64,000 nucleotides of DNA from Vulcanimicrobiota bacterium (GCA_963714015.1 OY970223.1:2272001-2336000), one strand, 5' to 3'; shown: positions 1 through 18,832, counted from the first letter of the stretch. The notes: generated by a model not told the origin, from the letters alone. Numbers and translations are program-made.

Positions 1-1
1 T

Positions 2-1698
2 AGCGCTCCGCAAGCTCCGGCACGATCGTACGATGCGCCCCAACCGCAGCAAAACCCGGTCTATCGGGCGAACACTGCGCCTCCGCGCCCGCAGCGCTCG
101 TACGAAAGCGCGCAGCCGCAGGTGCATAAGATTGCTCCGGCGCGGCCCGCGCGGTTAGAGAGCCCTCTGCAAACAGAAGTCCATACATACACGACGCCGC
201 GTGCAGCGGTTCGCACCTACACGGCCCCGCGCGCAGCGGTTCGCACCTACACGGCCCCGCGCGCAGCGGTTCGCACCTACACGGCCCCGCGCGCAGCGGT
301 TCGCACGTACGCGTCCCCGCGCGCAGCGGTTCGCACGTACGCGGCGCCGCGTGCAGCGGTTCGCACCTACACGACGCCGCGAGCAGCGGTTCGCACCTAC
401 ACGACGCCGCGTGCAGCGGTTCGCACCTACACGACGCCGCGTGCAGCGGTTCGCACCTACACGGCCCCGCGTGCAGCGGTTCGCACGTACACGGCCCCGC
501 GAGCTTCATTTATACAGCGCGTTCGGGTGAACACGCCGCAGCGGGTTGTGGTGAAGCCTCGCGTGCAAGCTCGTACGACGCCGTTCGTGCAATACGTTCG
601 CGTGAATGCGCCGCGGGTGCGCACGGTCCGGGAGTTGCCTTCAGTGTCGTATCGGCCGGCCGTACTTACGGGACGCGTGGTTCGCGTCGTGCGTAACAAC
701 TATGTCGTGCTGGCTCCTCCGGCCGGACGTGAGGTGTTCGTCCGCTGCATGTGCGGAACGCAGGTTCGTGCGAACCAGTACGTGACGATTCCGGCAAACT
801 ACAGCAACGGAAGTTACTATGCATCGGCACCGATGCAGTACTATCCGCAGGTGGCGCAGTGGTACCAAAACAACGGCGGCTACTATTCCGGGTATTCTAC
901 CAGCTATCCGTCTCAGCTATTACGGCGGCGGTTCGCCGTACTACAACAACGCAGGATACTCATATTACGGAAACACGTCTCCCTATTATAACGGCTATCC
1001 GTACGGTAACAGTGCGTATTACGGCAATGCCCCGAATTACGGCAGCACTCCATATTACGGGACCGCGCCGTACTACGGCACCACTCCGTACAGTCCCAGC
1101 GGATATCCGTACTACGACGCGTCGACTGCATATCCGTACTACACTCCGGGCTACTACGGATCCGGCCCTTCGCTCGTCGAAGAGCTCGCCATCGGATTGC
1201 TCCCGGAGCTGATTCCTAATCTTCCTCCGCAGTACGCAGGTCTTCTCGGAGCGCTGACGGGATCGTACGGCGGTTCTGTACAGGGCGGTTCCGTACACGG
1301 GCGGATTGCCGTACACGGGCGGATTGCCGTACACGGGCGGAACCCCGTACTACGGCGGCAACACCGGTTACTATAACAACGGTTACAGCAACACGTCGCC
1401 GTATCCGAGCAACGGCTACAATGCAAGCCCGTATTACGGAAATCAATACTCCGCCGCCCCGTATGCCGGATACAACGCCGGCGGCTTGCAGCTGGCTCAG
1501 CAGCAGGTGCAGGGAGTCGTGCTCGCGCGCGACGGCAATGTGCTGATGGTGCAGAGCGGCCTGACGCCCGTGCTGGTCGATGCAAGTCCGGCTTTCCAAA
1601 ACGGCAACGCGCTCAGCGGGCCGATCGCGGCCGGCCAAGTCGTCCAGGCAATGGGTTACTACAACGGCAGCACGTTCATGGCAACAGCGCTCGAATAA
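2..1698 (+). CDS. Low-complexity repeat protein (5' end outside window; decapeptide repeats, then Tyr/Gly/Asn/Pro-rich region); two apparent +1 frameshifts near ~910 and ~1290
   Basis: Frame open from base 2; ORFs 122-991, 819-1376 and 1306-1698 continue the same Y/G/N/P-rich composition in successive +1 frames. Confidence 0.6.
185..505 (+). repeat. 30-bp coding tandem repeat, ~10.7 units encoding TY(T/A)(T/A/S)PRAAVR
   Basis: Unit like acctacacggccccgcgcgcagcggttcgc repeated head-to-tail with no spacers. Confidence 0.95.
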
Positions 1699-1848
1699 GC
1701 CGCCGAGACATCCATCGCACCGCAAGGGGCCCTGCGTCGGGCAGCGCAGAGCCCCTTGTCACATTCCGGGAACCTGATTCGATCCCAAAGATGGCGCGAC
1801 CGTGCCCGGCAAAAGTGCTACAATGGTCGTTAAAGCGGAGGTCTTCGC

Positions 1849-2383
1849 GATGCGCTTTCTCCCATCAATCCTGCTTATTGCGCTCTGTTTCTCGAGCAGC
1901 GGCGTCGCGCTTGCCATAACGGGCTCCGGATCGAACTGCCCCTCGCTTTCCAACCAGCGCAACAAGCAATTGCCGGCGGTTCAACCTATGAACCAGCCCA
2001 CGTATTTGTGTAACAATGCGCAATATGCGACGGACCCGCCCAAACTGGGCGATCTTTCTTCGCAAGGACAGATGCTCAACGCGCAGGTCTGCAACACCAA
2101 CTGCAATTACCGCGCGCTCTTTCCCGACGACCCGGATAGCCCGCTCATTCCGACTCAGTGCGGTCGCGGGCAGAACGTGGATCCTCCGTATGCCATAAAC
2201 GGTAACGCGGCGAGCCAGTCGGCCAACACCGGGCCGCCCGCGCCCTATATGGGCACCGGCGGAAACTGTATGCCGCTGATGATCCCGCAGGCCCCAATCA
2301 ACCTTGAGGACCAAAAGCCGCCTACCGTTAAGCAGAGTAAGCCGAGCGCTTCGCCCGCTCCGAGCCCGCCCCCGGGCTCGTAG
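1849..2383 (+). CDS. Hypothetical secreted Cys/Pro-rich protein
   Basis: GGAGG RBS before ATG 1849; signal-peptide-like N-terminus MRFLPSILLIALCFSSSGVALA. Confidence 0.6.
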
Positions 2384-2407
2384 CTCCGCGGGTTACGGGC
2401 TCGGTGC

Positions 2408-2436
2408 TTGACGCCCAGCCCCGTCCCTGGTAGTAT
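2408..2436 (+). promoter_or_regulatory. Sigma70-type promoter of the rplC operon
   Basis: TTGACG (2408-2413), 17 nt, TAGTAT (2431-2436) with extended -10 TG. Confidence 0.75.
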
Positions 2437-2536
2437 GCCGAAGTTGTGGTCCACGCCGGCCGCGCCCTTTTCGCGCGTCCGGCCGAAGAACTTACTAAGT
2501 ACGCGTGGGCCCGTGTACTATTGGACGAGGATAAAC

Positions 2537-3193
2537 ATGAAGAACATCCTTGGCCGCAAGGTTGGGATGACGAGCGTCTTCACCGATGACGGACGGCACG
2601 TGCCGGTCACGGTGATCGAAGCCGGTCCCTGCACGGTGGTCGAGCGCAGAACGAAGGACAAGCACGGCTACGAGGCCGTCGCTTTGGCTTTCGGCGACGT
2701 GAAAAAGTCGCGCGTCTCGCGTGCCCTTGCCGGACATTATAAGAAGAACGACGCCGAACCCAAGCGCTGGGTTCGCGAATTTCGCATCGACATCGAGGGC
2801 GTCGAAGCGGGTCAGACCGTCACGGTCTCGCAATTCGAGCCCGGCGATCGCGTGGACGTCGTCGGAATCTCGAAGGGCCACGGGTTCGCCGGCGGCATCA
2901 AACGCCATAATTTTTCGGGGGGCGGCGCAAGCCACGGATCGATGATTCACCGCCAGCCCGCCTCCAACGGTGACACGAACGCGGGGCGCACCGTCAAAGG
3001 CAGCCGGCGTCCCGGTCACTTCGGCGTCGATCGCACGACGCACCAGAACCTCGAGATCGTAAAGGCGGACGCCGAGCGCAATTTGCTGCTCATCCGCGGT
3101 CCGGTTCCGGGCGCCAAAAATTCACTCGTAATGGTTCGAAAGAGCCGTTCCGCGAGCGCGCGTCATGCTCAGAGGACGGTGGCGAATGCCTAA
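2537..3193 (+). CDS. rplC: 50S ribosomal protein L3
   Basis: MKNILGRKVGMT...PVTVIEAGP...SKGHGFAG motifs; GAGG RBS. Confidence 0.97.
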   Translation: MKNILGRKVGMTSVFTDDGRHVPVTVIEAGPCTVVERRTKDKHGYEAVALAFGDVKKSRVSRALAGHYKKNDAEPKRWVREFRIDIEGVEAGQTVTVSQFEPGDRVDVVGISKGHGFAGGIKRHNFSGGGASHGSMIHRQPASNGDTNAGRTVKGSRRPGHFGVDRTTHQNLEIVKADAERNLLLIRGPVPGAKNSLVMVRKSRSASARHAQRTVANA

Positions 3194-3878
3194 CGTGATA
3201 GACGCCACCGGAAAGGTTCTGCGCGAAGAGCAGACACCGGAGATCTTCTCGCAAGAGCATGGGAACAAAACGCACGCGATCTATCGCGCCGTACACCGTG
3301 AACTCGCGAATCCCCGCGCCGGCACCGCTTCTACCAAGAAGCGCGACGAAGTCAGCGGGGGCGGCCGCAAGCCGTGGCGCCAAAAAGGAACCGGACGCGC
3401 CCGCCAAGGGTCGATCCGTTCGCCGCAATGGACGCACGGCGGCGTCGTGTTCGGCCCGCAGCCGCGCACGTACGTGACCGATCTCAACAAAAAGGAGCGG
3501 CGCGCCGCCTTCGTGGCCGCGCTTGCCGATCGTTTCGGCGGCGATGCGGTCACGGTGCTCGAAGCATCGGATTTTGCGATCGAAAAAACCGCCGATTTCG
3601 CCAAGCTTCTGTTCGGCAGCGCGAAAGACGCGAGAAAAGGTCCGTCCACGCTGGTGGTCTTCGGCCGCGACGAGCGCGCGGGCCGGCAGCTGGAGCGCGT
3701 GGGGCGTAATCTTGCCAAAGTCGGCGTCACGCACGCCGGTGCGCTGGACGTGAAAGACGTTTTGCGTTTCAACCGCATCGTCTTCACGGCCGAAGCGTAC
3801 GCGCAAGTCGTCAATTCGCTTACCGGCAAGAAGGCCGCGGCGTCAGAACAGGCTCCGCTTGAAAAGGAGCGCGCTTAA
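3186..3878 (+). CDS. rplD: 50S ribosomal protein L4
   Basis: GGGRKPWRQKGTGRARQGSIRSPQW motif. Confidence 0.97.
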   Translation: MPNVIDATGKVLREEQTPEIFSQEHGNKTHAIYRAVHRELANPRAGTASTKKRDEVSGGGRKPWRQKGTGRARQGSIRSPQWTHGGVVFGPQPRTYVTDLNKKERRAAFVAALADRFGGDAVTVLEASDFAIEKTADFAKLLFGSAKDARKGPSTLVVFGRDERAGRQLERVGRNLAKVGVTHAGALDVKDVLRFNRIVFTAEAYAQVVNSLTGKKAAASEQAPLEKERA

Positions 3879-3879
3879 A

Positions 3880-4188
3880 ATGGACGCACGGGACGTCATC
3901 GTTTCGCCGCGCATCACCGAGAAATCGATGGCCAATGCGCTCGGTCAGCAGTACAGCTTCGTCGTTCACCCGGATGCGACCAAGACGCAGATCCGTCACG
4001 CCGTCGAAGAGATTTTCGGCGTGAACGTAATCAAAGTCAATACGGTCAACGTCGGCGGTAAGACGAAGACGTTTGCGCGCCGCGGTGCGCGAACCGCGGG
4101 CCGCACCAAGGATTACAAGAAAGCCGTCGTCACCGTCAAGCCCGGTCAGAAGATCGAACTGGGCGGCGTCAACTATTTCGAGCAATAA
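3880..4188 (+). CDS. rplW: 50S ribosomal protein L23
   Basis: PRITEKS...ATKTQIRHAVEEIFGV...YKKAVV; synteny. Confidence 0.96.
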   Translation: MDARDVIVSPRITEKSMANALGQQYSFVVHPDATKTQIRHAVEEIFGVNVIKVNTVNVGGKTKTFARRGARTAGRTKDYKKAVVTVKPGQKIELGGVNYFEQ

Positions 4189-4242
4189 CGCCATGCATGA
4201 AGCAGTCCGGACGATTATTGCCGTAGCAACGCGGAGACTATG

Positions 4243-5070
4243 ATGCCAGTCAAAAAATACAAGCCGACCAGTCCCGGCAGACGCTTCGTGACGACGATGG
4301 ATTTCTCGGACCTGAGCAAGGTCGAGCCGGAGAAATCGCTCATCGAAGTGCGCAAGAAGCACTCGGGCCGTAACTTCAACGGGCACATTACCGTACGCCA
4401 CAAAGGCGGCGGGACGCGCAAGATGTACCGCATCATCGACTTCAAACGGACCAAAGACGCCGTTCCGGCCAAGGTGGCAACGATCGAATACGATCCGAAC
4501 CGCTCGGCTCGCATCGCGCTGGTGAACTATCGCGACGGCGAGAAGCGCTACATCCTCGCGCCGCTCGGTCTGAAGGTCGGCGACGTCGTCGAGTCCGGCG
4601 CCGCGGCCGACATCAAGATCGGCAACTGCCTTCCGATCAAAAACATCCCCGTCGGCACGGTCATTCACAACATCGAACTGCGGCCCGGACAAGGCGGCAA
4701 GCTCGTTCGCAGCGCCGGCGGCTCCGCACAGCTCATGGCCAAGGAAGGCGAATACGCCCAGGTACGTATGCCTTCGGGCGAGGTGCGCAAGGTGCTCGTG
4801 GTGTGCCGCGCGACGATCGGTCAGCTCGGCAACGTCGAGCACGAAAACGAAGTGGTAGGGAAAGCAGGTCGTCAGCGTCATCGCGGAAAGCGGCCGTCCG
4901 TTCGAGGCATTGCGATGAACCCGGTCGATCACCCGCACGGCGGCGGTGAAGCGCGTTCCACGTCCGGACGTCCGCCCACGACGCCTTGGGGCCAGATGAC
5001 GATGGGCAAGAAGACGCGCCGCAACAAGCGCACGCAAAACATGATCGTCCGTAAGAGAGGATCGAAATGA
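4243..5070 (+). CDS. rplB: 50S ribosomal protein L2
   Basis: [24 protein letters not shown] motifs (alternative ATG at 4240). Confidence 0.98.
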
Positions 5071-5095
5071 TTCGAGTTCTGTTAGCCGTATGCGA

Positions 5096-5141
5096 GCCGC
5101 GCGATTCAGCGCGGCGGGCGCGCAGCTCAGAGTGGAGCGCC
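5096..5141 (+). repeat. Junction repeat element, copy A (3' half)
   Basis: Hairpin GCCGCGC/GCGCGGC followed by GGGCGCGCAGCTCAGAGTGGAGCGCC, matching the 3' end of copies B-G. Confidence 0.75.
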
Positions 5142-5148
5142 TTCTAAA

Positions 5149-5424
5149 ATGGGGCGCAGCCTTAAAAAGGGACCGTTCGTCGCGGATCGCTTGATTCAAA
5201 AAATCGAGGGCCTGAACGAGCGCCGTGAAAAGCGTGTCGTGAAAACGTGGAGTCGCGCCTCCACGATCGTGCCGGCCATGGTCGGCCATACAATCGGCGT
5301 GCACAACGGTAAGGCGCACGTTCCGGTATTCGTCACCGAAAATATGGTCGGGCACAAGCTCGGCGAGTTCGCGCCGACCCGGAACTTCCGCGGCCACGGC
5401 GGCGACAAAGCGGCGGTGAAGTAA
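5149..5424 (+). CDS. rpsS: 30S ribosomal protein S19
   Basis: [11 protein letters not shown]...[13 protein letters not shown]. Confidence 0.98.
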
Positions 5425-5933
5425 TGGAGGCCGTCGCGCATCTCAAGTTCGCCCGAATGGGTCCGCGCAAACTGCGCCGGGTTGCCGACGCCATTCGCGG
5501 CAAGAGCGTGAAAGAAGCGCTCGTGCTGCTGCAATTTGCCGGCGTCTTCGCGGCCGAGCCGATGGAAAAACTGCTGCGCAGCGCCGTCGCGAACGCTGAA
5601 AACAATCACGACATGAATGCCGACGCACTTTACGTTGCGCGGGTGACGGTGGACGGCGGGCCGGGCGGACGATTTACCAAACGCCTGGATCCGCGTGCAC
5701 AAGGGCGCGCGGCGTTCAAGCGCAAGCGCCTCGCGCACGTGACGATCGCCGTCGCAGAGCAGGCGCCCGTCAAAAAGCGCAAGCTCCTGGGCGGTGCTTC
5801 GGTTGCGCTCAAGCGCGCGACCACTCGCAAAACTAAAGCGGCGTCGGCGGCGCCGGCCGCCGGCGGCTCGCCTTCGAAGAAGGCCAGAACTTCAAAGAAA
5901 CCTTCTCGCCGGAATAAGGCGGAGGCGATTTAA
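5424..5933 (+). CDS. rplV: 50S ribosomal protein L22 with Lys/Ala-rich C-terminal extension
   Basis: [14 protein letters not shown]...[10 protein letters not shown]...PRAQGRA. Confidence 0.96.
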
Positions 5934-6829
5934 TGGGACAAAAGATTCATCCGATTGGGTTGCGTCTGGGCATCACGCGCACGTGGGACAGCCGCTGGTT
6001 CGAGAAAAAGCATTATAAGGACTGGCTGCACGAAGACGTCAAGATCCGCAGATACTTCACGCGATGGATGCGTCCGGCGGCCATCTCGAAGATCGAGATC
6101 GAGCGCCGCGCCAATCAAGCGCGCGTGATCGTGAATACGGGCAAGCCCGGCATCATCATCGGCAAGCGCGGCGTCGGCATCGAAGACATTCGCAAGAATC
6201 TCGAGAAGCTGACCGGCAAAGCGGTGCAAGTAAACGTGATGGAGATCAAGCATCCGGAACTGGATGCGCGTCTCGTCGCGCAGAATATCGTCGACCAGCT
6301 CGAAAAGCGCATTGCGTTCCGCCGCGCCATGAAGCAGGCCATCATGCGTACGATGAAGTCGGGCGCGCGCGGGATCAAAGTGCAGGTTTCGGGACGGTTG
6401 GGCGGCGCCGAAATCGCTCGCACCGAGCGCAATGCCGACGGCAAGGTTCCGCTGCACACGCTGCGAGCCGACATCGACTACGCGCACGTCGAAGCTTTCA
6501 CGACCTTCGGACGCATCGGCGTCAAAGTATGGATCTACCGCGGCGAAGTGCTGCCGGATCACGCACGTCAATCCGAGCGCGAAGGACGCCCCGAGCGTCC
6601 GCAATTCCGCGATCGTCGCGATCGCGGCGGACGCAGCCGCCGCGGCGGTCCCGGCACGGGAACTCCGCGTTCGCCGCAGACTGAAGCGCTTTCGCCCGTC
6701 GAAGCGCCCGTCGGCGAAGCGCCGGCCTTTGAGCCGACCGCGCCGCCGGTAGACTCTGCGCCCATTGCCGATGCGGCAGAGGCTCAAACCATCGTACCGC
6801 AATCCGAACCGACCGGAGAACAGGCGTAA
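5933..6829 (+). CDS. rpsC: 30S ribosomal protein S3 with disordered C-terminal tail
   Basis: [13 protein letters not shown]...[10 protein letters not shown]...[11 protein letters not shown]. Confidence 0.98.
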
Positions 6830-7251
6830 TGCTTACACCAAAACGCGTCAAATGGCGCAAAGTTCACCGTGGACGGATGACCGGCAAAGCCTTGCGCGGC
6901 AGTACCTTGACGTTCGGCGAGTACGGACTTCAAGCGCTCGAGCCGTGCTGGATGACCAACCGCCAGATTGAAGCTGCGCGTATTGCTATGACGCGCCACA
7001 TCAAACGCGGCGGCAAGGTCTGGATCAAGGTGTTTCCGGACAAGTCGGTTACCAAGAAACCCGCTGAGGTGCGCATGGGCGCCGGTAAAGGCAACCCGGA
7101 GTTCTGGGTAGCCGTGGTGCGTCCCGGGCGGGTGCTGTTCGAGCTTTCAGGTGTTGAGCCGGACGTAGCCAAACGCGCGCTTCAACTCGCCGCTTCAAAG
7201 CTGCCGATCGGAACGAAGTTGATTACCCGCGGCGAGGAGGCCCCGGCATGA
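6829..7251 (+). CDS. rplP: 50S ribosomal protein L16
   Basis: [27 protein letters not shown]...RMGAGKG. Confidence 0.98.
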
Positions 7252-7469
7252 TCTCGAGAGAGTTCAAAGAGCTGCGCAACCTCACCATCGGAGAGCTCCA
7301 GCAAAAGGCGAAAGAGACGAAGGAAGAGCTCTTCAATCTTCGCTTTGCGCTGCGCACCGGGCACCTTTCGGACTTCAGCAAAGTCCGGGCGATGCGGCGC
7401 ACCTACGCACAGATTCAAACCGTCATCTCCGAGAAACGGATCGCTGAGGCTAAGAATGGAGCAGCTTAA
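7248..7469 (+). CDS. rpmC: 50S ribosomal protein L29
   Basis: KELRNLT..EL...KEELFNLRF; synteny. Confidence 0.93.
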
Positions 7470-7728
7470 TACCGTCCGGCGCCGGGCACGGCGCCTTAAA
7501 CAAGGCCGCGTCGTCTCGGACAAGATGGACAAGACCATCGTCGTCCTTTCCGAGACGCGGGTTCCGCATCCGGTTTACGGCAAGATCGTCCGCAAGTCGG
7601 TAAAGTTCAAAGCGCACGACGAGCAAAACGACGCCAAGATCGGCGACACCGTTCGCATCATGGAATCGCGTCCGATGTCCAAAGACAAGCGCTGGCGCCT
7701 GGTCGAGATCGTGGAGCGTGCCAAATGA
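7456..7728 (+). CDS. rpsQ: 30S ribosomal protein S17
   Basis: [14 protein letters not shown]...HPVYGK...AHDE...[11 protein letters not shown]. Confidence 0.97.
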
Positions 7729-7739
7729 AGACTTTGATT

Positions 7740-7785
7740 GGGGCGCATCGCGTTATGGGGCGCGCGGAGCTCAGAGCGGAGCGCC
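7740..7785 (+). repeat. Junction repeat element, copy B (internally deleted)
   Basis: 5' GGCGC and 3' GCGCGGAGCTCAGAGCGGAGCGCC termini shared with copies C-G. Confidence 0.75.
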
Positions 7786-7792
7786 TTTTCAA

Positions 7793-8170
7793 ATGATTCA
7801 GCAAGAAACGCGTTTAAAGGTGGCTGACAATTCCGGCGCGCGCGAGCTGCTGTGCATTCACGTGAGCGGCGGCAGCCGTCATCCATACGCACACGTGGGC
7901 GATATCATCGTGGGCACGGTCAAGAGCGCTATTCCCGGCGCGGCGGTCAAGAAAGGCCAAGTCGTCAAAGCGGTTATCGTCCGTACGTCCTCGCCGATTC
8001 GCCGGCCGGACGGATCGGTCGTCAAATGCGACGACAACGCCTGCGTGATCATCAAAGGCGAAAAGGACAATTTAGATCCGCGCGGGACGCGCGTCTTCGG
8101 CCCGGTCATGCGCGAATTGCGGGATCGCGGCTTTTTGAAGATCGCCTCGCTCGCGCCCGAGGTACTCTAA
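7793..8170 (+). CDS. rplN: 50S ribosomal protein L14
   Basis: [16 protein letters not shown]...[10 protein letters not shown]...SLAPEVL. Confidence 0.98.
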
Positions 8171-8173
8171 CAG

Positions 8174-8524
8174 ATGGCGAACATCGTCAGAGGCGACACC
8201 GTCATGATCCGGCGCGGCAAGGAAAAAGGCAAGCGCGGCACGGTCAAGGCCGTATTTCCGAAAGACGGAACGGCGACGGTCGAGGGCCTGAACATCGTCA
8301 AACGGCACACCAAGCAGGGCACGCAGTCGCAAAACATGGGCGGCTCTGCGCAGACCGGCGGCATCATCGAGAAGGAGGCTCCGCTTCCACTCTCCGTGCT
8401 GATGTACGTGTGCGAGAAGTGCAAAGCACCTTCTCGGCTTCGTCATCACGAGACGGCCGAAGGTACGCATCGGGTCTGCGCGCGCTGCGGCGAACCCGCT
8501 CGTCTCTCCGCAAAGGGCGCATGA
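8174..8524 (+). CDS. rplX: 50S ribosomal protein L24
   Basis: GDTV...GKEKGKRG...VEGLNIVKRHTK...GGIIEKEAP. Confidence 0.96.
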   Translation: MANIVRGDTVMIRRGKEKGKRGTVKAVFPKDGTATVEGLNIVKRHTKQGTQSQNMGGSAQTGGIIEKEAPLPLSVLMYVCEKCKAPSRLRHHETAEGTHRVCARCGEPARLSAKGA

Positions 8525-8539
8525 TGGCAGTATCATTGT

Positions 8540-8644
8540 GGGCTTCCTCGGGGAGGTTTCAAGTTGCAACAAAGTTCGCGCGCCCTGCGGTAGCGGGGAC
8601 CCCGGCGCTTGCGCTGGGTGGGGCGGAGGTTAGACCGGAGCGCC
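8540..8644 (+). repeat. Junction repeat element, copy C (full length)
   Basis: CCTCGGGGAGG...GCAACAAAG...GCGCCCTGCGG...GGCGGAGGTTAGACCGGAGCGCC directly before rplE ATG. Confidence 0.85.
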
Positions 8645-9196
8645 ATGCTTAGATTGAAAGAAAAATACGATAAGGAAGTCCGCAAGCAGCTTCAGGAACG
8701 CTTCGGATATAAGAACGCTCACCAGATCCCGAAGCTGGAGAAGGTCGTCATCAACATGAGCGTGGGCGAAGCGATCAGCAACGGCAAGGCACTCGACGCG
8801 GCGGTCTCGGAGCTCCAGGCGATTAGCGGGCAAAAGCCGGTAATCACCAAAGCGAAGAAGTCGATAGCCGCCTTTAAGCTGCGCGAAGGCATGAACATCG
8901 GCACGAAAGTCACGCTCCGCGGCGAGCGCATGTACGTGTTCTTGGACAAGCTCTTCAACATCGTGCTGCCGCGCATCCGCGACTTCCGCGGTCTGCCCCG
9001 CAAATCGTTCGACGGACGCGGCAATTACAATCTGGGTCTTCGCGAGCAGATCGTCTTCCCGGAGATCAACTTCGACAAGGTCGACAAGATGCGCGGGATG
9101 GACATCGTCATCGTAACGTCGGCAAAGAACGACGAAGAAGCGACGGAATTTCTCACGGCAATGGGTTTGCCGCTTCAGAAAACGGGAGCCCGCTAA
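8645..9196 (+). CDS. rplE: 50S ribosomal protein L5
   Basis: [11 protein letters not shown]...[21 protein letters not shown]...LPRIRDFRG. Confidence 0.98.
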
Positions 9197-9381
9197 TGGC
9201 GAAAACTTCTCTCATCGAAAAATCCAAGCGCACGCCAAAGTTCAAGGTGCGCGCCCACAACCGGTGCCAGCTGTGCGGACGTCCGCGCAGCGTGTACCGC
9301 CGTTTCGGGCTGTGCCGCATCTGCTTCCGGGAGAACGCCCACAAAGGCAACATCCCGGGCGTGACCAAGGCGTCGTGGTGA
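9196..9381 (+). CDS. rpsZ: 30S ribosomal protein S14, Zn-binding type Z
   Basis: 61 aa, RCQLCGRPR...LCRICFRE. Confidence 0.96.
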
Positions 9382-9388
9382 TCCGGTA

Positions 9389-9790
9389 ATGGCTGTAATT
9401 ACCGATCCTATCGCCGATCTGCTGACGCGCATTCGCAATGCCAATACGGCCAGCCATGAGGTCGTTGAAATTCCTGCGTCGCGCATGAAACAAGCTGTGG
9501 CTCAAATCCTCAAGGACGAGGGCTTCATCAAGGACTTCGAGCGCGTCGACGAGGGGCCGCAAGGCAGGATCAAGATCACTCTCAAGTACGGCCCGGACAA
9601 AGAGAAAGTCATCACCGGTCTGCGGCGCATCTCGCGTCCCGGTCTGCGCGTATATACGAGCAAGACCGAGATACCTCGGGTTTTAGGCGGACTGGGCCTG
9701 GTCATCATGTCCACTTCCAAGGGCATCATGTCGGGCAAACGCGCGAAAAAAGAAGGATGCGGAGGCGAAGTTTTGGCGTATGTGTGGTGA
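9389..9790 (+). CDS. rpsH: 30S ribosomal protein S8
   Basis: [13 protein letters not shown]...[10 protein letters not shown]...GGEVLAYVW. Confidence 0.98.
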
Positions 9791-9807
9791 TGAACAAAGC
9801 GACAATC

Positions 9808-9911
9808 GGGGCGCCCTCGGGGAGGCTTCAAATTACAACGCATCTTCCGCGCCCTGCGGCGGGGGGCCCCATTGGTTGCAATGGGGGGCGCGGAGCTTAG
9901 AGCGGAGCGCC
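9808..9911 (+). repeat. Junction repeat element, copy D (full length)
   Basis: GGCGCCCTCGGGGAGGCTT...GCGCCCTGCGG...CCCCATTG/CAATGGGG...GCGCGGAGCTTAGAGCGGAGCGCC. Confidence 0.85.
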
Positions 9912-9918
9912 ACTTAAA

Positions 9919-10467
9919 ATGTCTAGAATTGGAAAGCTTCCCGTAACTGTTCCGAACGGCGTCAATGTGAACGTCGAAGGAGACGAAGTCGCGGTCAAGG
10001 GGCCAAAGGGCGAGTTGCGGCAGCGCGTGCTTTCACACGTCACCGTCGCGGTCGAAGACGGCAAGGTCGTCATCACGCGGAACGGTGAGGCGAAGGAACA
10101 TCGCGCGGCGCACGGTCTGACGCGAACGATCGTCAACAACATGGTCGAAGGCGTCAGCAAGGGCTTCCGCAAGAGCCTGGAGATTCAGGGTGTCGGTTAC
10201 CGAGCCTCAAAGTCCGGCGAGAAGATCAATCTGACGCTGGGGTACTCGCATCCGGTGAGCTACGATCCGCCGAAGGGCATCGCGCTTTCCGTCGAGGGCA
10301 CCAACAAGATCCACGTCGAGGGCATCGACAAGCAGCAAGTCGGACAGGTTGCCGCCGAAATTCGCAATCTGCGTCCGCCCGAGCCGTACAAGGGTAAAGG
10401 CGTGCGCTACGAAGGCGAAGTGGTGCGTAAGAAGCTCGGCAAGGCCGGAAAGGCTGGTAAGAAGTAA
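9919..10467 (+). CDS. rplF: 50S ribosomal protein L6
   Basis: MSRIGKLPV...[13 protein letters not shown]. Confidence 0.98.
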
Positions 10468-10832
10468 TGCCGCGTATTTCCAAAGATCTGAGCCGCCGCA
10501 AGCGCCACGAGCGTCTGCGCCGCAAAGTCGTGGGAAGCTCGGAGCGCCCTCGCTTGCTGATCCGCCGTACGCTGCATCACATCTACGCGACGGTCGTCGA
10601 CGACGCTAAGGGGCATACCGTCGTGGCCGCCTCGACGCGCGAGAAGGATCTTACGGACGGTTTGGATTCCACGACGAACGTCGCCGCAGCCGAGAAGATC
10701 GGCGCGGCAATCGCCGCTAAGGCAAAGCAGGCCGGCATCACGCAGGTCGTCTTCGATCGCAGCGGTTTGAAATATCACGGCCGCGTCAAAGCACTCGCCG
10801 ACGCAGCTCGCCAAGCAGGCTTGGAGTTTTAA
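10467..10832 (+). CDS. rplR: 50S ribosomal protein L18
   Basis: RPRL...HIYA...[28 protein letters not shown]. Confidence 0.97.
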
Positions 10833-11344
10833 TGCAGTATCGTGGTGGTCGCGATCGCGACAATTCGGGATTCGAAGAGACAGTCGTCCGAGTGAACCGC
10901 GTCGCCAAAGTGGTCAAGGGCGGTAAGCGCTTCAGCTTCAGCGCTTTGGTCGTTGTCGGCGATCGCAAAGGCAAGGTCGGTTTCGCTATCGGCAAGGCCG
11001 GCGAAGTCCCCGAAGCAATCCGCAAAGCCGTTGAGGCGGCCAAGAAAAACCTCGTCTCCGTGCCGATGGTCGAGAAGACGATCCCGCATCAGGTCAATCA
11101 TTCGATCGGTGCGGCGCGCGTGCTCCTCAAACCCGCGGCGCCCGGTACCGGGGTCATTGCGGGCGGCGCTATGCGCGCGGTGCTGGAGCTCGCGGGCATT
11201 CACGACATTCTGACCAAGTCGCTCGGAACGAACAATCCGATCAACGTCGTCTACGCGACGGTAGAAGCGCTGCGTTCGCTCAAGACGGCGGAGCAAGTTG
11301 CATCGATGCGCGGCAAGAACGTCGGCGAAATCTTCGCGGCATAA
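10832..11344 (+). CDS. rpsE: 30S ribosomal protein S5
   Basis: [23 protein letters not shown]...PGTGVIAGG. Confidence 0.98.
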
Positions 11345-11358
11345 GAAAGCACACGAAC

Positions 11359-11961
11359 ATGGCAGAGAAGAAAACGTCCAAAGCCGCAACCTCGCGCAAG
11401 AAGGCTCCGGCGGCAAAGGCGGCAGCAAAGAAGCGAAGCACGGCAAGTGCCGTCACCGCCGCCGCGATTGCGTCCGGGAGCGGCTCGATGTCGCTTGGAA
11501 AGCTCAAACCGGCCGAAGGCAGCTGGCCCAAGCGCACGCGCGTGGGCCGCGGTCACGGTTCCGGAATGGTTAAGACCGGCGGCGAAGGCGGCAAAGGTCA
11601 GACGGTGCGTTCCGGCGGCGGTAAAGGTCCGGCGTTCGAAGGCGGACAGACACCTTGGCAGCGCCGTCTTCCGCATCGTCGCGGCTACTCGCAAAAAGCC
11701 CGCGACATCGGTCATTTCCGGACCGAGCTCGCGGTTGTAAATCTGCATGACCTTGCGGACTGGGACGCCTCGGTCGAAGTGACGCCGCAGACGCTCAAGG
11801 TCGCGAAGAAGATCAAAGCCGTGCGCGACGGCGTGAAGGTCCTCGGCGGTAGCAAGGCGGGGAAGACGCTTCCGAACGGCCTTCGTTTCCGCGACGTTTT
11901 ATTCTCGACCAGCGCAAAGGAAGCACTGCAAGCCGCCGGCGCCACCTTCGATGCTGAATAA
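11359..11961 (+). CDS. rplO: 50S ribosomal protein L15 with Lys/Ala-rich N-terminal extension
   Basis: RVGRGHGSG..KT.G.G.KGQ..RSG...FEGGQTP..RRLP. Confidence 0.95.
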   Translation: MAEKKTSKAATSRKKAPAAKAAAKKRSTASAVTAAAIASGSGSMSLGKLKPAEGSWPKRTRVGRGHGSGMVKTGGEGGKGQTVRSGGGKGPAFEGGQTPWQRRLPHRRGYSQKARDIGHFRTELAVVNLHDLADWDASVEVTPQTLKVAKKIKAVRDGVKVLGGSKAGKTLPNGLRFRDVLFSTSAKEALQAAGATFDAE

Positions 11962-13255
11962 TCTTCGCGCAGCTCTGCTCGTACCGGACATCCGCAAGCG
12001 GGTGCTCTTCGTGTTCGGCGCGTTCGCGACGTTCGTCTTTATGATCCACGTGCAGCTGCCGAACATCGATGAAAAAGTTTGGCAGCAGGTGCTCTCGCAG
12101 GGCGCGTTCTTCAACCTGCTCGGCTTTCTGTCGGGCGGCGCACTGCAGAAGCTCTCCATCATTGCGATGGGCATCACCCCGTACATCAACGCGTCGATCA
12201 TCATGCAGCTCATGACGGTGGTGCTGCCGCAACTCGAAGAGATGGCCAAGAAAGGCGGCGAGGAAGGCCGCAAGAAGATCGGTCAGTACACTCGCTGGCT
12301 AACGATTGTGCTCGCTGCACTCCAATCGTTTTTCATGGCCAATCTGATGCGCAACTCCGGCGTGTTCTACGACCGGAGCATCTGGTTTCTGCTCTTCGCG
12401 ATGCTGGCGTTCGTCGCCGGTACGCTGTTCCTGATGTGGCTCGGCGAGCAGGTCACCGACAAGGGCATCGGCAACGGCGTCTCGCTGATCATCTTCATCG
12501 GTATCGTGCTGCGCTATCCGCAGTACGTAGCCCAAACGTTCGCCTCGACCTCCAAAGGCGGCGAGTCCGTTTTCAACATCCTCATTTACGTCCTGATAGC
12601 GATAGGCGTAATCATCTCGATCGTCTTCCTTTATCAAGGGCAGCGCCGCATTCCGGTGCAGCAGGCGCGCCGCGTCGTGGGCCGCAAGATGTTCGCGGGC
12701 CGCTCCACGTATATTCCGTTGCGGCTGAACAACGCGGGCGTCATCTCGATCATCTTCGCAATCTCGCTGCTGCTGCTTCCCCAGCAAGTTCTCTCGTGGG
12801 TCAACAAGGCGCAGAACGGCGGCTCGTCCAGCGGATTCATGGGCGGCCTCTCGACGTTCTTCCAGGTCTACTTCCACCCGCAGTCGGCGCTGTACAACAT
12901 CGTCTATTTCGTGCTGGTCGTCGTCTTCACGTTCTTCTACAGCGCGATCGTCATCAACACCAAAGACATCGCGGACAACCTGAAAAAGAGCGGGTCGTTC
13001 ATCCCGGGAATCCGTCCGGGTCAACCGACGGTCGACTACATCAATCGCATCTTGCTGCGAATCACGACGGCCGCCGCGATCTATCTCGGATTGCTCGCGG
13101 TCGTGCCCAGCATTGCCCAGCAAGGACTCTCCGTTACTACGTTCTACTTGGGTTCAACGTCACTGCTGATCGTGGTCGGCGTGGCGCTGGATACGATCAC
13201 GCAGATCGAGGCGCGCCTGGCGATGCGCGACTACAAGGGATTCATCCGCAGGTAG
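11951..13255 (+). CDS. secY: Preprotein translocase subunit SecY
   Basis: SIIAMGITPYINASII, GIGNGVSLIIF, FIPGIRPG, GSTSLLIVVGVALD; multiple TM segments. Confidence 0.98.
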   Translation: MLNNLRAALLVPDIRKRVLFVFGAFATFVFMIHVQLPNIDEKVWQQVLSQGAFFNLLGFLSGGALQKLSIIAMGITPYINASIIMQLMTVVLPQLEEMAKKGGEEGRKKIGQYTRWLTIVLAALQSFFMANLMRNSGVFYDRSIWFLLFAMLAFVAGTLFLMWLGEQVTDKGIGNGVSLIIFIGIVLRYPQYVAQTFASTSKGGESVFNILIYVLIAIGVIISIVFLYQGQRRIPVQQARRVVGRKMFAGRSTYIPLRLNNAGVISIIFAISLLLLPQQVLSWVNKAQNGGSSSGFMGGLSTFFQVYFHPQSALYNIVYFVLVVVFTFFYSAIVINTKDIADNLKKSGSFIPGIRPGQPTVDYINRILLRITTAAAIYLGLLAVVPSIAQQGLSVTTFYLGSTSLLIVVGVALDTITQIEARLAMRDYKGFIRR

Positions 13256-13262
13256 GGGCGTA

Positions 13263-13928
13263 GTGCGGTTGATCTTCATCGGTCCGCCCGGCGCGGGCAA
13301 GGGCACGCAGGCAAAGATTCTGCAAGAGCGCTTCGGCGCCAAGCAGATCTCGACCGGCGACATCTTGCGTGAGAATCGGGAGCAAGGAACGGAGCTCGGC
13401 AAGCTCGCGGCGAGCTTCATGCAGAGCGGCGCGCTGGTTCCGGACGAGGTCATCATCAAGATGATCGAAGCGGAGCTCGACAAGCTCGACGGCGGTTTCA
13501 TCATGGACGGTTTTCCACGAACGGTCGCGCAGGCGGAAGCGTTCGACTGTTTATTGCAGGGCAAGAACCTCGTCCTCGACGGCGTGGTTCACTTCAACGC
13601 GGACCGCGCAACGCTGCTTACGCGTCTGACGGCGCGCTGGACGAACCCGCGCAACGGCCAAACCTACAACACCGTGACCAATCCGCCGCGCGTTTCGGGT
13701 GTGGACGACGAAGACGGCGGCCCGCTCGTGCAGCGTGAGGACGACAAACCGGAAACCGTTACGAAGCGTCTGGACGTGTACGAGGAGCAAACCGCGCCGC
13801 TTGTCTCCTACTATCGCGGGACGGGAAAACTCGTCGAAGTGAACGCGCTTGCGCCGGTTCCTGCGGTCACCGAAGAGATCGTTTCGAAGATCGGTGTGCA
13901 CGCCGCCGGGCGCAACGCGGCGCAATGA
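13263..13928 (+). CDS. adk: Adenylate kinase
   Basis: GPPGAGKGTQ P-loop, STGDILR, DGFPRT. Confidence 0.97.
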   Translation: MRLIFIGPPGAGKGTQAKILQERFGAKQISTGDILRENREQGTELGKLAASFMQSGALVPDEVIIKMIEAELDKLDGGFIMDGFPRTVAQAEAFDCLLQGKNLVLDGVVHFNADRATLLTRLTARWTNPRNGQTYNTVTNPPRVSGVDDEDGGPLVQREDDKPETVTKRLDVYEEQTAPLVSYYRGTGKLVEVNALAPVPAVTEEIVSKIGVHAAGRNAAQ

Positions 13929-14728
13929 TCACGATCAAGTCGGCCCGTGAAATCGAGGTGATGCGGCGCAGCGGAAAGGTCAACGCCAAGGTGCTGGCCG
14001 ATCTGATGCGCGCGGCCAAGCCCGGCATGACGACGCGCGATCTCGACAAGATGGCCGAGCAAGGCATTCGATCGCTGGGCGCTGAGCCGACGTTCAAAGG
14101 TTATCACGGGTATACGTGTTCGATCTGCACGTCGGCGAACGATCAAGTCGTGCACGGAATTCCCGGCGACTACGCTTTGAAGGAAGGCGACCTGCTCTCG
14201 ATCGACATCGGGGCGACGCTCGAGGGCTACGTCAGCGACTCGGCTGTAACGATTCCGATCGGCAAAGTCTCCGAGGACGCTCAGCGGCTGATGCACGTGA
14301 CGCAGGAGTGCTTAATGATTGGAATCGCGCAGATGTATCGGGGCAAGCATTTGGGCGACATCGGCCACGCGGTTCAAAAGCACGCCGAATCGCACGGATA
14401 CGGCGTGGTCCGCGAACTAGTCGGGCACGGCGTCGGAACGAAAATGCACGAGGAGCCGCAAGTCCCGAACTACGGCAAGGCAGGCGGGGGGTTGGAGCTT
14501 CGGTCGGGGCTTGTCCTGGCCATCGAGCCCATGATAACGCAAGGCCACTACGCCGTGGAAACGCTCAAGGACGGCTGGACAGTGGTGACCGCAGATGGTA
14601 AACTCGCAGCGCACTTCGAGCACACCATCGCCATCACCGACGACGGCCCCAAGATTCTTACCTTGCGCGAAATCGGGGAGCATCCCGACGTCGCGAAGTA
14701 CCGGCCAAAGGAAGAGATGGCCGCATGA
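13925..14728 (+). CDS. map: Type I methionine aminopeptidase
   Basis: VVHGIP, IDIG, GHGVG..MHEEP, AIEPMI, AHFEHT. Confidence 0.97.
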   Translation: MITIKSAREIEVMRRSGKVNAKVLADLMRAAKPGMTTRDLDKMAEQGIRSLGAEPTFKGYHGYTCSICTSANDQVVHGIPGDYALKEGDLLSIDIGATLEGYVSDSAVTIPIGKVSEDAQRLMHVTQECLMIGIAQMYRGKHLGDIGHAVQKHAESHGYGVVRELVGHGVGTKMHEEPQVPNYGKAGGGLELRSGLVLAIEPMITQGHYAVETLKDGWTVVTADGKLAAHFEHTIAITDDGPKILTLREIGEHPDVAKYRPKEEMAA

Positions 14729-14731
14729 GGT

Positions 14732-15007
14732 GGTGCTCGATGGGGCGCGGAGGCTAGGCCGAAGCGCCGTTAGAAATCGTCCCGGCGCCCCTCGGGGAGG
14801 CTTGGACCGGCAACAAAGCACTAGGGCGCCTGAGGAATCGGGGGCCCCATGAAATGGGGGGCGCGGAGGCTAGGCCGAAGCGCCGCTAGATCGAGCAAAA
14901 TCGTCCCGGCGCCCCTCGGGGAGGCTTGGACGGCAACAAAGCACTAGGGCGCCTGAGGAATCGGGGGCCCCATGAAATGGGGGGCGCGGAGGCTAGGCCG
15001 AAGCGCC
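14732..15007 (+). repeat. Junction repeat elements E (short, 14732-14768), F (14784-14884) and G (14908-15007); F and G near-identical tandem copies
   Basis: Direct repeat with ~124-nt period differing by one indel in the element; shared termini GGCGC...GAAGCGCC. Confidence 0.9.
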
Positions 15008-15014
15008 GTTAGAT

Positions 15015-15131
15015 ATGAAAGTCAGACCGTCAGTAAAACGAATCTGTGAAAAATGCAAAATCATTCGCCGCGAAGGTAAAGTGCGCGTGATCTGCGAGGT
15101 CAATCCCAAGCACAAGCAAGTGCAGGGTTAG
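15015..15131 (+). CDS. rpmJ: 50S ribosomal protein L36
   Basis: Read from sequence: [38 protein letters not shown] (below ORF-track cutoff). Confidence 0.97.
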
Positions 15132-15185
15132 GCTTATAAACGCTACCCTTCGACCAGCTCAGGATCATAAGGAAGAATTTAAAAA

Positions 15186-15572
15186 ATGGCACGTATAGCC
15201 GGTATCGACCTTCCCCGCGACAAGCGCATCGAGATCGCGCTTACGTACATCTACGGGATCGGTCTGAGGACCTCGCAGAAGCTGCTCGCGCACGCGGGAA
15301 TCAGCCCGGATCTGCGCGTCAAAGAGTTGAGCGAAGATCACGAGAAGAAGCTGCGCGACGCGATCGACGCGGTCGGGATAAAAGTCGAAGGCGATCTGCG
15401 GCGCGAGGTCGGCTCGCACATCAAGCGGCTGATGGATATCGGCTGCTATCGCGGCATTCGGCACCGGCGCGGCCTTCCGGTCCGCGGCCAGCGTACCAAG
15501 ACCAACGCGCGCACGCGGAAGGGCCCGAAGAAAACGGTCGGCAACCGGAAAAAAGCGGCCGCTAAGAAGTAG
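15186..15572 (+). CDS. rpsM: 30S ribosomal protein S13
   Basis: [10 protein letters not shown]...[26 protein letters not shown]. Confidence 0.98.
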
Positions 15573-15597
15573 CATTTTCGACGGAACGGACTTTCGG

Positions 15598-15626
15598 AGC
15601 AGGCTCGATATCGAGCCTGCTTTCTT
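15598..15626 (+). terminator. Putative intrinsic terminator after rpsM
   Basis: Perfect palindrome AGCAGGCTCGATATCGAGCCTGCT followed by TTCTT. Confidence 0.65.
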
Positions 15627-15769
15627 AATAAGGAACGCAGGGAAGATCTACGAAGATAGCGCGCCGCTTCATGGAACGGTATTCGTCCATGAACGCAGTA
15701 TACGCCGGCGTTCGCAGAGCCGGCAGCGCCGGCCCGGCCGCAAAACGGACACTCTGAACCGCATACGGG

Positions 15770-16621
15770 ATGATTTACGTCGGGACGTGCGGTTATTCGT
15801 ACAAGGACTGGATGGGGCCGTTCTATCCGGGAACCGCCCGCAGGAACGAGATGCTGGCCTTTTATGCCGCTCACTTCCGCGCCGTCGAGATCGACGCGTC
15901 GTTTTACGGCGTTCTCGCCCCACGAATAGTTTCGCGAATGCATGCCGTCACGCCGGACGGCTTCCGGTTCTGTTTCAAGGTTCCGCGCACGCTCACGCAC
16001 GAGCCCGACCTCGTGACCCCGCACGTGCATCCGGATGCAAAAGCGTTTAGCGAAAGCGTGATGCCGCTTCGGCAGGATGGGAAACTGGGTGCCGCGCTGC
16101 TGCAGTTTCCGAACGGCTTCAAACCGGTTGATGATGCCGTTGCGTACATACGGCGTTTGGCGGCAGCTCTCGATCGGTTGCCGCTGGTTGCCGAATTTCG
16201 CAATCGTGAATGGCAGAACGGCCGCACATTGGAAATGCTGGCCGACCTTGGCATCGGCTGGTGCAACGTCGACATGCCGCAGTACGAGTCGCTGATGTTG
16301 CCGGCTTCGGACGTCACGAGCAGCATCGGTTACGTGCGCTTTCACGGACGCAATGCTGCGCAATGGTGGACCGGCAACAACACGACGCGCTACGACTATC
16401 TCTATGCGCCGGATGAACTGGTGCCCTGGAGCGATCGCGTCGCTGAAATCGAAGAGAGCGTCGAGCAAACGTACGCGTTTTTCAATAATCACGCACGCGG
16501 TAACGCCGTTCGCAACGCGGAGATGTTTGCCCAGATTCTGAGCGAGCGTTACGGCGAGGCCGCCGCGGGAATACTTCCGGAACGTGGGGGCGGCCCCATG
16601 CAAAGATCGCTTTTCGACTAA
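15770..16621 (+). CDS. DUF72 (YecE-like) family protein
   Basis: IYVGTCGYSYKDW.G.FYP, VEIDASFY, LLQFP, AEFRN.EW, YVRFHGRN, YAFFNNH. Confidence 0.9.
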   Translation: MIYVGTCGYSYKDWMGPFYPGTARRNEMLAFYAAHFRAVEIDASFYGVLAPRIVSRMHAVTPDGFRFCFKVPRTLTHEPDLVTPHVHPDAKAFSESVMPLRQDGKLGAALLQFPNGFKPVDDAVAYIRRLAAALDRLPLVAEFRNREWQNGRTLEMLADLGIGWCNVDMPQYESLMLPASDVTSSIGYVRFHGRNAAQWWTGNNTTRYDYLYAPDELVPWSDRVAEIEESVEQTYAFFNNHARGNAVRNAEMFAQILSERYGEAAAGILPERGGGPMQRSLFD

Positions 16622-18757: not shown

Positions 18758-18832
18758 TCCGGCGTCCCCTCGTGCAGTAATTCTATCGCCCCCCGCCTCA
18801 ACCGGTGACGGGGAAGCACCGAATACTGGACT

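Follow-up and report, generated by a model that had tools for sequence, protein, structure and literature searches.

A structured repeat with stop-to-start mini-ORFs at operon junctions of a Vulcanimicrobiota bacterium, including its S10/spc ribosomal-protein operon

In bacteria, the gene borders inside ribosomal-protein operons rank among the most highly conserved, and these junctions depend on translational coupling. The REP/BIME and REPIN repeats of proteobacteria are G+C-rich, hairpin-forming intergenic repeats, which are mobilised by a RAYT (Y1) transposase, often appear in clusters and can affect the fate of mRNAs. The Rickettsia palindromic elements (RPE) are inserted in frame within genes and are translated as a portion of the protein. 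Mycobacterial interspersed repetitive units (MIRUs) were reportedly described by Supply and co-workers in 1997. In the parts of a 2025 review that deal with them (PMC12548453), MIRUs are presented as mobile repeats inserting at start codons, with an internal open reading frame (ORF) coupled at -4 nt that likely minimises the effect on expression; short upstream ORFs, and also bicistronic-design cassettes, are presented there as delivering ribosomes to a coupled downstream gene. Here, a stretch of 64,000 nt from a Vulcanimicrobiota bacterium (GCA_963714015.1 OY970223.1:2272001-2336000; hereafter, the window) was analysed, in which one repeat family occupies junctions of an S10/spc-type ribosomal-protein operon and carries mini-ORFs leading from the stop codon of one gene towards the start codon of the next. 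On balance, we lean somewhat towards the reading that this repeat arrives in start-codon regions and that its built-in mini-ORF relays ribosomes across the insert, which would preserve the coupling of the operon.

The operon extends from rplC to rpsM (window 2537-15572) and its junctions are mostly tight, with TAATG in six cases, ATGA in two, longer overlaps in three and gaps of 1-14 nt in five. Inserts of 64-286 nt were found at five junctions (rplB/rpsS, rpsQ/rplN, rplX/rplE, rpsH/rplF and map/rpmJ), and these inserts all derive from a single repeat, as copies or as remnants; its full unit measures about 105-130 nt. In order, the unit comprises a 5' arm (often starting with ATG(A)), helix P1 (GGCGC...GCGCC enclosing an invariant CNCGGGGAG), helix P3 (CCCC-N4-loop-N4-GGGG), helix P4 (GGCGC-GGA-NNN-TAG-NNN-GGA-GCGCC) and a tail of the form TTTT(A/C)AAA. 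The 3' end reads GGAGCGCC-TTTTAAA-ATG, the tail leading directly into the ATG with which the next gene or the next unit begins, and the GGAG of P4 is located 11 nt before the downstream ATG. The motif GGCGC...GCGCC appears at both ends of the unit and also internally, and arrays of 2-5 tandem units are formed with a period of 110-131 nt. Moreover, TGA is the stop codon of all five upstream genes at the element junctions of the window, each with an ATG that overlaps or adjoins it, while a TGA stop is present in only 3 of the 18 remaining upstream genes of the operon.

The original prediction had placed six mini-ORFs in this region, and all six translate exactly as described, with the same peptides and overlaps. 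These mini-ORFs and the element copies associated with them are given below; the ORF at 9780-9917 is an addition to the earlier list, and its frame differs from that of 9790-9900.

4193-4243, plus strand: mini-ORF of 16 aa, beginning 4 nt past the rplW stop and ending in ATGATG at rplB; the spacer is not a repeat copy
5067-5147, plus strand: mini-ORF of 26 aa, from ATGA on the rplB stop to TAA-A-ATG of rpsS
5113-5142, plus strand: truncated element copy, 3' module (helix P4), nhmmer E 0.0012, followed by the tail TTCTAAA-ATG
7725-7796, plus strand: mini-ORF of 23 aa, with ATGA overlaps at both ends (rpsQ stop, rplN start); a CAAATGA direct repeat flanks the insert
7755-7786, plus strand: short element copy, 3' module (P4), nhmmer E 3e-5
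8521-8652, plus strand: mini-ORF of 43 aa, from ATGATG on the rplX stop to a TAG 5 nt into rplE, overlapping the first codons of rplE
8536-8645, plus strand: full element unit (helices P1, P3 and P4), covariance model R1 89.2 bits, E 4e-18, abutting the rplE ATG without an A/U tail
9780-9917, plus strand: ORF of 45 aa, starting 10 nt inside the end of rpsH, crossing the whole insert and ending in TAA-A-ATG of rplF
9790-9900, plus strand: mini-ORF of 36 aa, from TGATG on the rpsH stop, in phase with rplF; the TAG of the P4 loop stops it 18 nt before rplF
9805-9912, plus strand: full element unit, covariance model R1 104.4 bits, E 1e-21; the minimum-free-energy fold gives P3 and P4
14725-14757, plus strand: ORF of 10 aa, from ATGA on the map stop to the TAG of a P4 loop; map/rpmJ is not bridged
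14741-15008, plus strand: repeat array, with a partial 3' module (14741-14768) and full units at 14780-14885 and 14904-15008, at the place of infA in relatives

Most of these ORFs bridge stop to start, as had been proposed, with the exception of those at 9790-9900 and 14725, which end short of the next start.

Beyond the window, a hidden Markov model (HMM) of the 32-nt 3' module gave 37 matches at about 24 loci of the 3.56-Mb genome, many of them tandem arrays of 2-3 units, and a covariance model gave 40 matches, including a five-unit array before mreB. The usual placement of the copies is in sense orientation just before a start codon. A long ORF begins 0-23 nt downstream of the last unit at 22 of the 24 loci in this genome (at 6-8 nt in 18 cases), and in nine genomes a start codon directly follows 96 of 110 arrays, 75 of them at offsets 5-8. 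Both a downstream start and a co-directional upstream gene, as judged by a test on G+C content at third codon positions (GC3), were found for 52 arrays. According to Pfam, the neighbours are operon partners (upstream/downstream), namely fabZ/lpxA, atpH/atpA, nifS/nifU, fliG/fliH, flgE/flbD and UPF0102/protein kinase, with multi-unit arrays at dciA/gyrB (three units), pbpA/pknB (three), HMGL-like/WYL regulator (three) and type II/IV secretion ATPase (T2SSE)/T2SSF (two), and at rpmE/prfA, where two units follow a terminator-like hairpin. An autoregulatory leader of ribosomal-protein genes was rejected as an explanation, as copies appear in many unrelated operons, and an assembly artefact was rejected since the repeat is present in many independent assemblies.

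For the comparison with chance, a junction was scored as bridged when an ATG or GTG within 10 nt either side of the upstream stop opened an ORF to the downstream start, its stop falling between 15 nt before and 10 nt after that start, and chains of up to four ORFs were allowed. A total of 12 out of 17 Pfam-checked junctions of this genome were bridged, compared with 3.3 expected from dinucleotide shuffles of the full gap (Poisson-binomial P 1e-7), 5.2 from interior shuffles that spared the first 12 and the last 14 nt (P 7e-6) and 5.7 after the insertion of 1 or 2 nt, which shifts the phase; with the gap reverse-complemented, 1 of the 17 was bridged. Across nine genomes, 35 of 49 junctions were bridged (11.6 and 20.9 expected from full and interior shuffles, respectively; 5 when reverse-complemented). 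Bridging was well above the composition-matched shuffles and the phase-shifted and reverse-complement controls alike. The ends of the ORFs were also concentrated at few positions, since among 42 single bridging ORFs the start lay at -1 relative to the upstream stop (ATGA) in 16 and at +2 (TGATG/TAATG) in 12, and the stop lay at +1 relative to the downstream start (ATGA) in 23, at -4 (TAA-A-ATG) in 12 and at -3 in 4. Furthermore, ATGA at the stop and an ATG within -10..+12 nt were found in 21 and 38 of the 49 element junctions, compared with 13% and 35% of 1217 proxy genes of this genome.

The junctions of the operon were then compared across 20 relatives. From 47 junctions with gaps of 40-450 nt, the 15 rows of map/rpmJ were dropped for having infA in the gap, leaving 13 element-derived junctions and 19 repeat-free spacers. 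All 13 element-derived ribosomal-protein junctions (in this genome, G000, and in G001, G007, G017 and G018; eight flagged by the HMM and five by a GCGCC-tail seen by eye) were bridged, compared with 4.3 expected, and the bridging ORFs persist in relatives despite large changes in length. At rplB/rpsS, for example, inserts of 78, 126, 164 and 123 nt were all bridged, the 126-nt insert being a full element in G001 with an ORF in the same 3' frame as 5067-5147.

Bridging was not restricted to the repeat. The non-repeat rplW/rplB spacer had been said to behave similarly, and this held: its ORF at 4193-4243 was scored as bridged (shuffle probability 0.14), as were 10 of the 19 repeat-free spacers of at least 40 nt, compared with 3.5 expected, in a set that includes the rplW/rplB family and in which some start calls are rough. 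Relay ORFs thus seem to be a general habit of the operon spacers of this lineage. The rplW/rplB spacer itself (window 4189-4242) represents a second conserved spacer family, with the layout stop-TTCGC-ATGCAT... and, in longer forms, a continuation into AATCGCTTCGTTGCTC...; the ATGCAT start of 4193-4243 is common to the spacers of G002, G013 and G016. Members of this family measure 40-274 nt in G002, G013, G003 and G016, and their own mini-ORF bridges the junction in G000, G002, G003 and G016.

The relay that we favour would proceed as follows. The repeat would land in, or survive only in, the start-codon region of a gene in sense orientation, and the start region would be duplicated on insertion, leaving a relic or element-borne ATG at the upstream stop (ATGA, TGATG or TAATG). 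From that upstream ATG, a small ORF would cross the helices and end on the downstream start (ATGA) or one base short of it (TAA-A-ATG). On what would be a shared transcript, a ribosome ending the upstream gene would restart on the mini-ORF, unfold the helices on its way and so reach the downstream start, where restart would be aided by the GGAG of P4, 11 nt upstream, and by the A/U tail. Coupling would survive the insertion in this way, and the repeat could consequently be tolerated even inside the S10/spc operon.

The main rival to this proposal holds that a selfish repeat gives rise to the mini-ORFs as a by-product: the upstream ATG would be no more than a duplicated or relic start codon, the frame would be open since the G+C-rich consensus leaves two frames poor in stops, and the downstream gene would be translated by fresh initiation at the GGAG and A/U tail, with a relay neither required nor under selection. 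We regard this explanation as possible but doubtful; it does not exclude a relay, nor is it excluded by one. A number of observations weigh against the relay and, in most cases, speak for this rival. The rule for bridging was generous, and the upstream genes of the nine genomes were called by a heuristic based on G+C content at third and second codon positions (GC3-GC2). The four window junctions were bridged in 0.14, 0.74-0.78, 0.60-0.64 and 0.49-0.53 of the dinucleotide gap shuffles, so that any single ORF of the window is weak evidence. Besides, the copies are kin to one another and the P-values therefore overstate the case. Stops in the units were unevenly spread over the sense frames (116 in phase with the downstream gene, 43 and 61 in the others), but the antisense frames were equally skewed (126, 35 and 54) and the total of 220 stops was not below that of the shuffles (around 193), which indicates that the openness of the frames derives in part from the consensus sequence; the pattern of 'two open frames, one closed' was accordingly dropped as a sign of design. 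In addition, 14 of the 49 junctions were unbridged, and in this genome 5 of the 17 (nifS/nifU, fliG/fliH, flgE/flbD, map/rpmJ and rpmE/prfA), although their genes are presumably expressed. The rpmE/prfA array, unbridged by the junction rule, is nevertheless spanned by a 90-codon leader ORF, and arrays in 5' leaders, which have an opposite-strand neighbour instead of a co-oriented one, are spanned by ORFs as well (8 of 23, compared with 2.9 expected), a modest difference from the 30 of 51 arrays with a co-directional upstream gene that are spanned by one ORF.

Two further observations concern the 3' end of the repeat. Decayed remnants retain the GGAGCGCC tail rather than the whole path of the ORF, which speaks for a real ribosome-binding role of the tail, and the start codon is unpaired in the predicted folds, lying in the A/U-rich tail with its own GGAG, which makes initiation without a relay plausible. 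However, a mere by-product accounts poorly for the excess of bridging over controls in which the start-proximal 12 nt and the 14-nt tail are kept (35 versus 20.9) and over phase-shifted sequences (12 versus 5.7), and for the presence of the ORF in 13 of 13 diverged copies at ribosomal-protein junctions. The same applies to atpH/atpA, where inserts of 102, 58 and 27 nt in three genomes of the genus all have an ORF in frame to ATGA, which starts with ATGAAC 1-8 nt from the stop and extends over 35, 18 and 10 codons, respectively. At the same junction, G013 has a 34-nt remnant without an ATG.

The fold of the unit was assessed by covariation in 93 copies from nine genomes. A total of 92% of the cells pair, and 20 of the 23 pairs are changed on both sides; double-changed cells numbered 251, compared with 77 in column shuffles (0 of 500 reaching 251) and 13-37 with slid partners, a large gap to both controls, although the copies were aligned by fitting them to the model, a procedure that favours the structure, and they include related paralogues. 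The folding energies of four junctions were not distinct from those of shuffles (Z of -1.67, -1.00, +0.31 and -0.18), and the case for structure therefore rests on covariation instead. A pattern search for the 3' end of 16S gave no match and was not used. Three helices with strong covariation, the TTTT after P4 and the location between operon genes whose products are needed in different amounts would suit an RNA-level device, that is, a stabiliser, a processing site or a weak attenuator (G+C-rich hairpin plus UUUU) setting upstream against downstream mRNA levels, with ORFs that are incidental or relevant only since a translating ribosome blocks the hairpin. We consider such a device improbable, as the terminator/promoter scan flagged no element copy in the window as terminator-like, the Rfam covariance scan of window positions 1-20000 (E up to 1) returned no match, and both the fixed spacing to start codons and the stop/start overlaps at the two ends would be left unexplained.

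The lineage is placed by its relatives in the Eremiobacterota/Vulcanimicrobiota, family Baltobacteraceae. In a first sample, which takes in the unpublished genomes G010, G033, G035, G042 and G043, the repeat was found in 23 of 36 genomes of the same family, in none of 5 of a sister family and in 1 of 19 of a third family. In a phylum-wide sample (E <= 1e-5), it was found in 36 of 71 genomes of the same family and in none of 79 from 20 other families. These counts come from samples scored with strict filters, and absence means that the repeat was not found in the genomes searched. The copy number reaches about 40 per genome (G000, G009 and G015). The repeat is apparently mobile, duplicates in tandem and is confined to one family among the genomes searched.

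Orthologous junctions of relatives agree with the earlier suggestion that the inserts belong to one repeat family, which is gained and lost from genome to genome. By genus, the repeat is located at rplB/rpsS (G001, G017 and G018), rpsQ/rplN (G007 and G017) or rplV/rpsC (G017), while rpsH/rplF has it in G007 (2.3 units, compared with one unit here) and G017, and remnants of it in G001 and G018. It also appears before rpmJ in several relatives. The genes flanking the inserts of the window are the following:

4243-5070, plus strand: rplB, with its TGA stop within ATGA
5149-5424, plus strand: rpsS
7456-7728, plus strand: rpsQ, with its TGA stop within CAAATGA
7793-8170, plus strand: rplN
8174-8524, plus strand: rplX, with its TGA stop within ATGATG
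8645-9196, plus strand: rplE
9389-9790, plus strand: rpsH, with its TGA stop within TGATG
9919-10467, plus strand: rplF
13925-14728, plus strand: map, with its TGA stop within ATGA
15015-15131, plus strand: rpmJ

The original prediction took the upstream ATG to be the original, overlapping start codon, and this applied to some of the junctions. At rpsQ/rplN, where this genome has CAAATGA[insert]CAAATGA, 10 of the 20 relatives show a 4-nt (A/G)TGA overlap and 7 have gaps of 1-7 nt, so that the upstream ATG there is the ancestral start. The same was found for pbpA/pknB, which is a GTGA/TTGA overlap in G001 and G002 and has ATGAnCGA at both ends of the insert here, and at fabZ/lpxA of G009 the insert has the lpxA start region on either side. 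In contrast, it did not apply to three other junctions. Element-free relatives have TAATG (six), ATGA (two) or gaps of 0-2 nt (six) at rplB/rpsS, compared with ATGA ... TAA-A-ATG here, and TAA or TAG (rarely TGA) plus 0-17 nt at rplX/rplE and rpsH/rplF, compared with ATGATG and TGATG on a TGA stop here, so at these junctions the TGA stop and its ATG arrived with the insert. The empty sites of dciA/gyrB show TAA or TAG, 0-11 nt and ATG, and in the subfamily of G015 the 5' ATG belongs to the repeat consensus, ATGTTGTTAC. Overall, the empty orthologous sites and the duplicated start regions show that in many cases the upstream ATG is the old start codon.

Duplicated start regions were found at several loci, with direct repeats of variable length, from 7 to around 14 nt: CAAATGA at rplN, ATGAnCGA at pknB, TAAAA(T)GATCAACG at atpA and ATGATCCACCC at lpxA of G009. 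In the latter, an antisense copy lies between two copies of the lpxA start region (TAA-ATGATCCACCCAG ... GTGATTCATCC) and has a 48-codon ORF, from TAA-ATG to GTGA. An antisense remnant is present at fabZ/lpxA in G003, a sense copy in this genome and spacers of 7-27 nt in G001, G002 and G013, and the junction has thus been hit or rearranged more than once. At atpH/atpA, each of the four relatives recovered has an element or a remnant. Taken together, the empty and duplicated sites fit an insertion into the start-codon region with a duplication of 7 to around 14 nt. A search for the Y1/RAYT transposase (PF01797) gave no match in this genome, which is 89.6% complete by markers, and no partner insertion sequence was looked for; the control search was positive in 6 of 14 known genomes.

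As regards the peptides, it had been expected that different copies use different frames and that the peptides are not the selected product. Two frames are indeed in use, with the open frame differing in G015 and G017, and compensatory changes in the stem of P4 alter the encoded residues; the two together indicate that the peptide is not what is kept. Arrays are crossed in diverse ways, either by ATGA-linked chains of ORFs over 2-3 units (pbpA/pknB and the array at 161014) or by single ORFs of 129 codons (dciA/gyrB) and 112 codons (HMGL/WYL). Such long ORFs across whole arrays (129, 112 and 90 codons), which would be called genes, are what could be expected if the mini-ORFs encoded functional small proteins of a repeat-encoded peptide family. 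Nevertheless, this is very hard to credit given the different frames, the free variation of residues with the compensatory stem changes (E-P-R-A-E, E-A-R-P-E and E-L-R-A-E), the range of ORF lengths (9-129 codons) and the lack of any Pfam family above its cut-off for the six mini-ORF peptides (NanE scored 23 bits against a 27-bit cut-off). For annotation, it should be considered that array ORFs of 90-129 codons get called hypothetical proteins, and that the starts and stops of the flanking genes are easily misplaced.

Some loci depart from the usual arrangement. The five-unit array before mreB (G000:C1:798970-799517, period of around 110 nt) is followed by the start codon 16 nt past the last unit, with its own GGAG, and no bridging ORF was found there. 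In the two-unit array at G000:C1:161014-161255, the upstream gene (with a Shikimate_DH-like domain) reads around 55 nt into the first unit, so that the C-terminal residues of its product come from the repeat. No start codon follows the repeat at two loci of this genome, one of which is an inverted pair beside a tRNA (G000:C1:2740126-2740278), consisting of a full unit and a partial 3' module around 100 nt apart and adjoining an opposite-strand tRNA-like sequence and a terminator-like hairpin.

At the map/rpmJ junction, infA is absent (window 14729-15014) and 2.3 repeat units are present instead, while most relatives have infA in that place. The first partial unit before rpmJ (ATGGGGCGCGGAGGC...) resembles the start of infA in relatives (ATGGCGCG.GGCAG.C...), a likeness that suggests a deletion between look-alike stretches. 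A divergent homologue of infA is located elsewhere in the genome, outside the window (G000:C1:2604412-2604681), and is 56% identical to the operon copy of G001.

Further features of the operon were recorded. At window 11344-11961, no rpmD (L30) ORF is present between rpsE and rplO, which are separated by a 14-nt gap, and rpmD was not searched for elsewhere; rplO is long (200 aa). The operon ends with a hairpin after rpsM (window 15572-15630), and rpsK, rpsD, rpoA and rplQ do not come next, no search for them having been made elsewhere. The end of rplD (window 3865-3882) reads GGAGCGCGCTTAAAATG and runs into rplW, with a layout like that of the repeat tail, GGAGCGCC-N-TTAAAATG, which may be an absorbed remnant or a coincidence. 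Outside the operon, 11 tandem copies of a 30-nt unit (GCG.GCAGCGGTTCGCAC.TAC.CG.C.CCG) lie at window 114-564 inside a long open frame (122-991), and this unit is probably a 10-residue protein repeat.

Regardless of the mechanism, the repeat has entered at least five junctions of the ribosomal-protein operon in one genome, and different ones in relatives. If the ORF does relay ribosomes, the MIRU solution would have been invented twice, independently, the second time in an uncultured phylum of soil bacteria and together with a defined RNA fold, and the copies would provide dozens of natural variants for the study of termination-reinitiation through structured RNA (1-5 units, two frames, remnants and an antisense copy). 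A bolder version, which we think unlikely, is that the repeat has been co-opted as a portable coupling cassette, with stable helices limiting the downstream start mainly to relay-borne ribosomes, the invariant CNCGGGGAG (with an exact GGAGG core) functioning as an internal Shine-Dalgarno site, for pausing or standby, or else binding a protein and so tuning the relay, and tandem copy number setting the efficiency of coupling. In that case, dozens of essential junctions would be locked to the translation of the preceding gene, including those of ribosomal proteins, gyrB, atpA, pknB and prfA.

No published description of this repeat was found in a literature search that covered open-access papers only. 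The repeat was set against the known systems. Similarly to REP and REPIN, these are short, G+C-rich, hairpin-forming intergenic repeats that are often clustered; however, this genome (89.6% complete) has no match to the Y1 transposase PF01797, the copies are in sense orientation before start codons instead of after stops or as inverted pairs, and their ORFs overlap the flanking genes. Like RPE, the repeat is structured, open to translation and tolerated in translated regions, but it is intergenic and is read as a small ORF of its own, with one locus where the upstream gene reads 55 nt in. The likeness to coupled upstream ORFs and bicistronic designs, as far as the review's account of these extends, lies in a short ORF that would serve only to unfold the structure and hand the ribosome to an overlapping start, although the present ORF comes with a repeat family that occupies dozens of loci, and it connects two genes instead of joining a leader to a gene. 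The closest resemblance is to MIRUs as portrayed in the same source: both are short repeats between co-oriented genes, apparently mobile, located at start codons and present in tandem copies, with an internal ORF ending in a 4-nt overlap with the downstream start (ATGA, in 23 of the 42 single bridging ORFs here), and both may be read as inserting with little effect on expression, which for the present repeat is a reading only. On the other hand, the present repeat belongs to the Eremiobacterota and not to the Actinomycetota, and it is likened to MIRUs by description and not by sequence. Its units are longer (105-130 nt), with three covariation-backed helices, the invariant CNCGGGGAG and a built-in GGAG and A/U tail, and copies of it occupy junctions of the S10/spc operon. 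As phylum, unit length and the defined fold all set it apart, the repeat is filed as an analogue of MIRUs and not as a member of that family.

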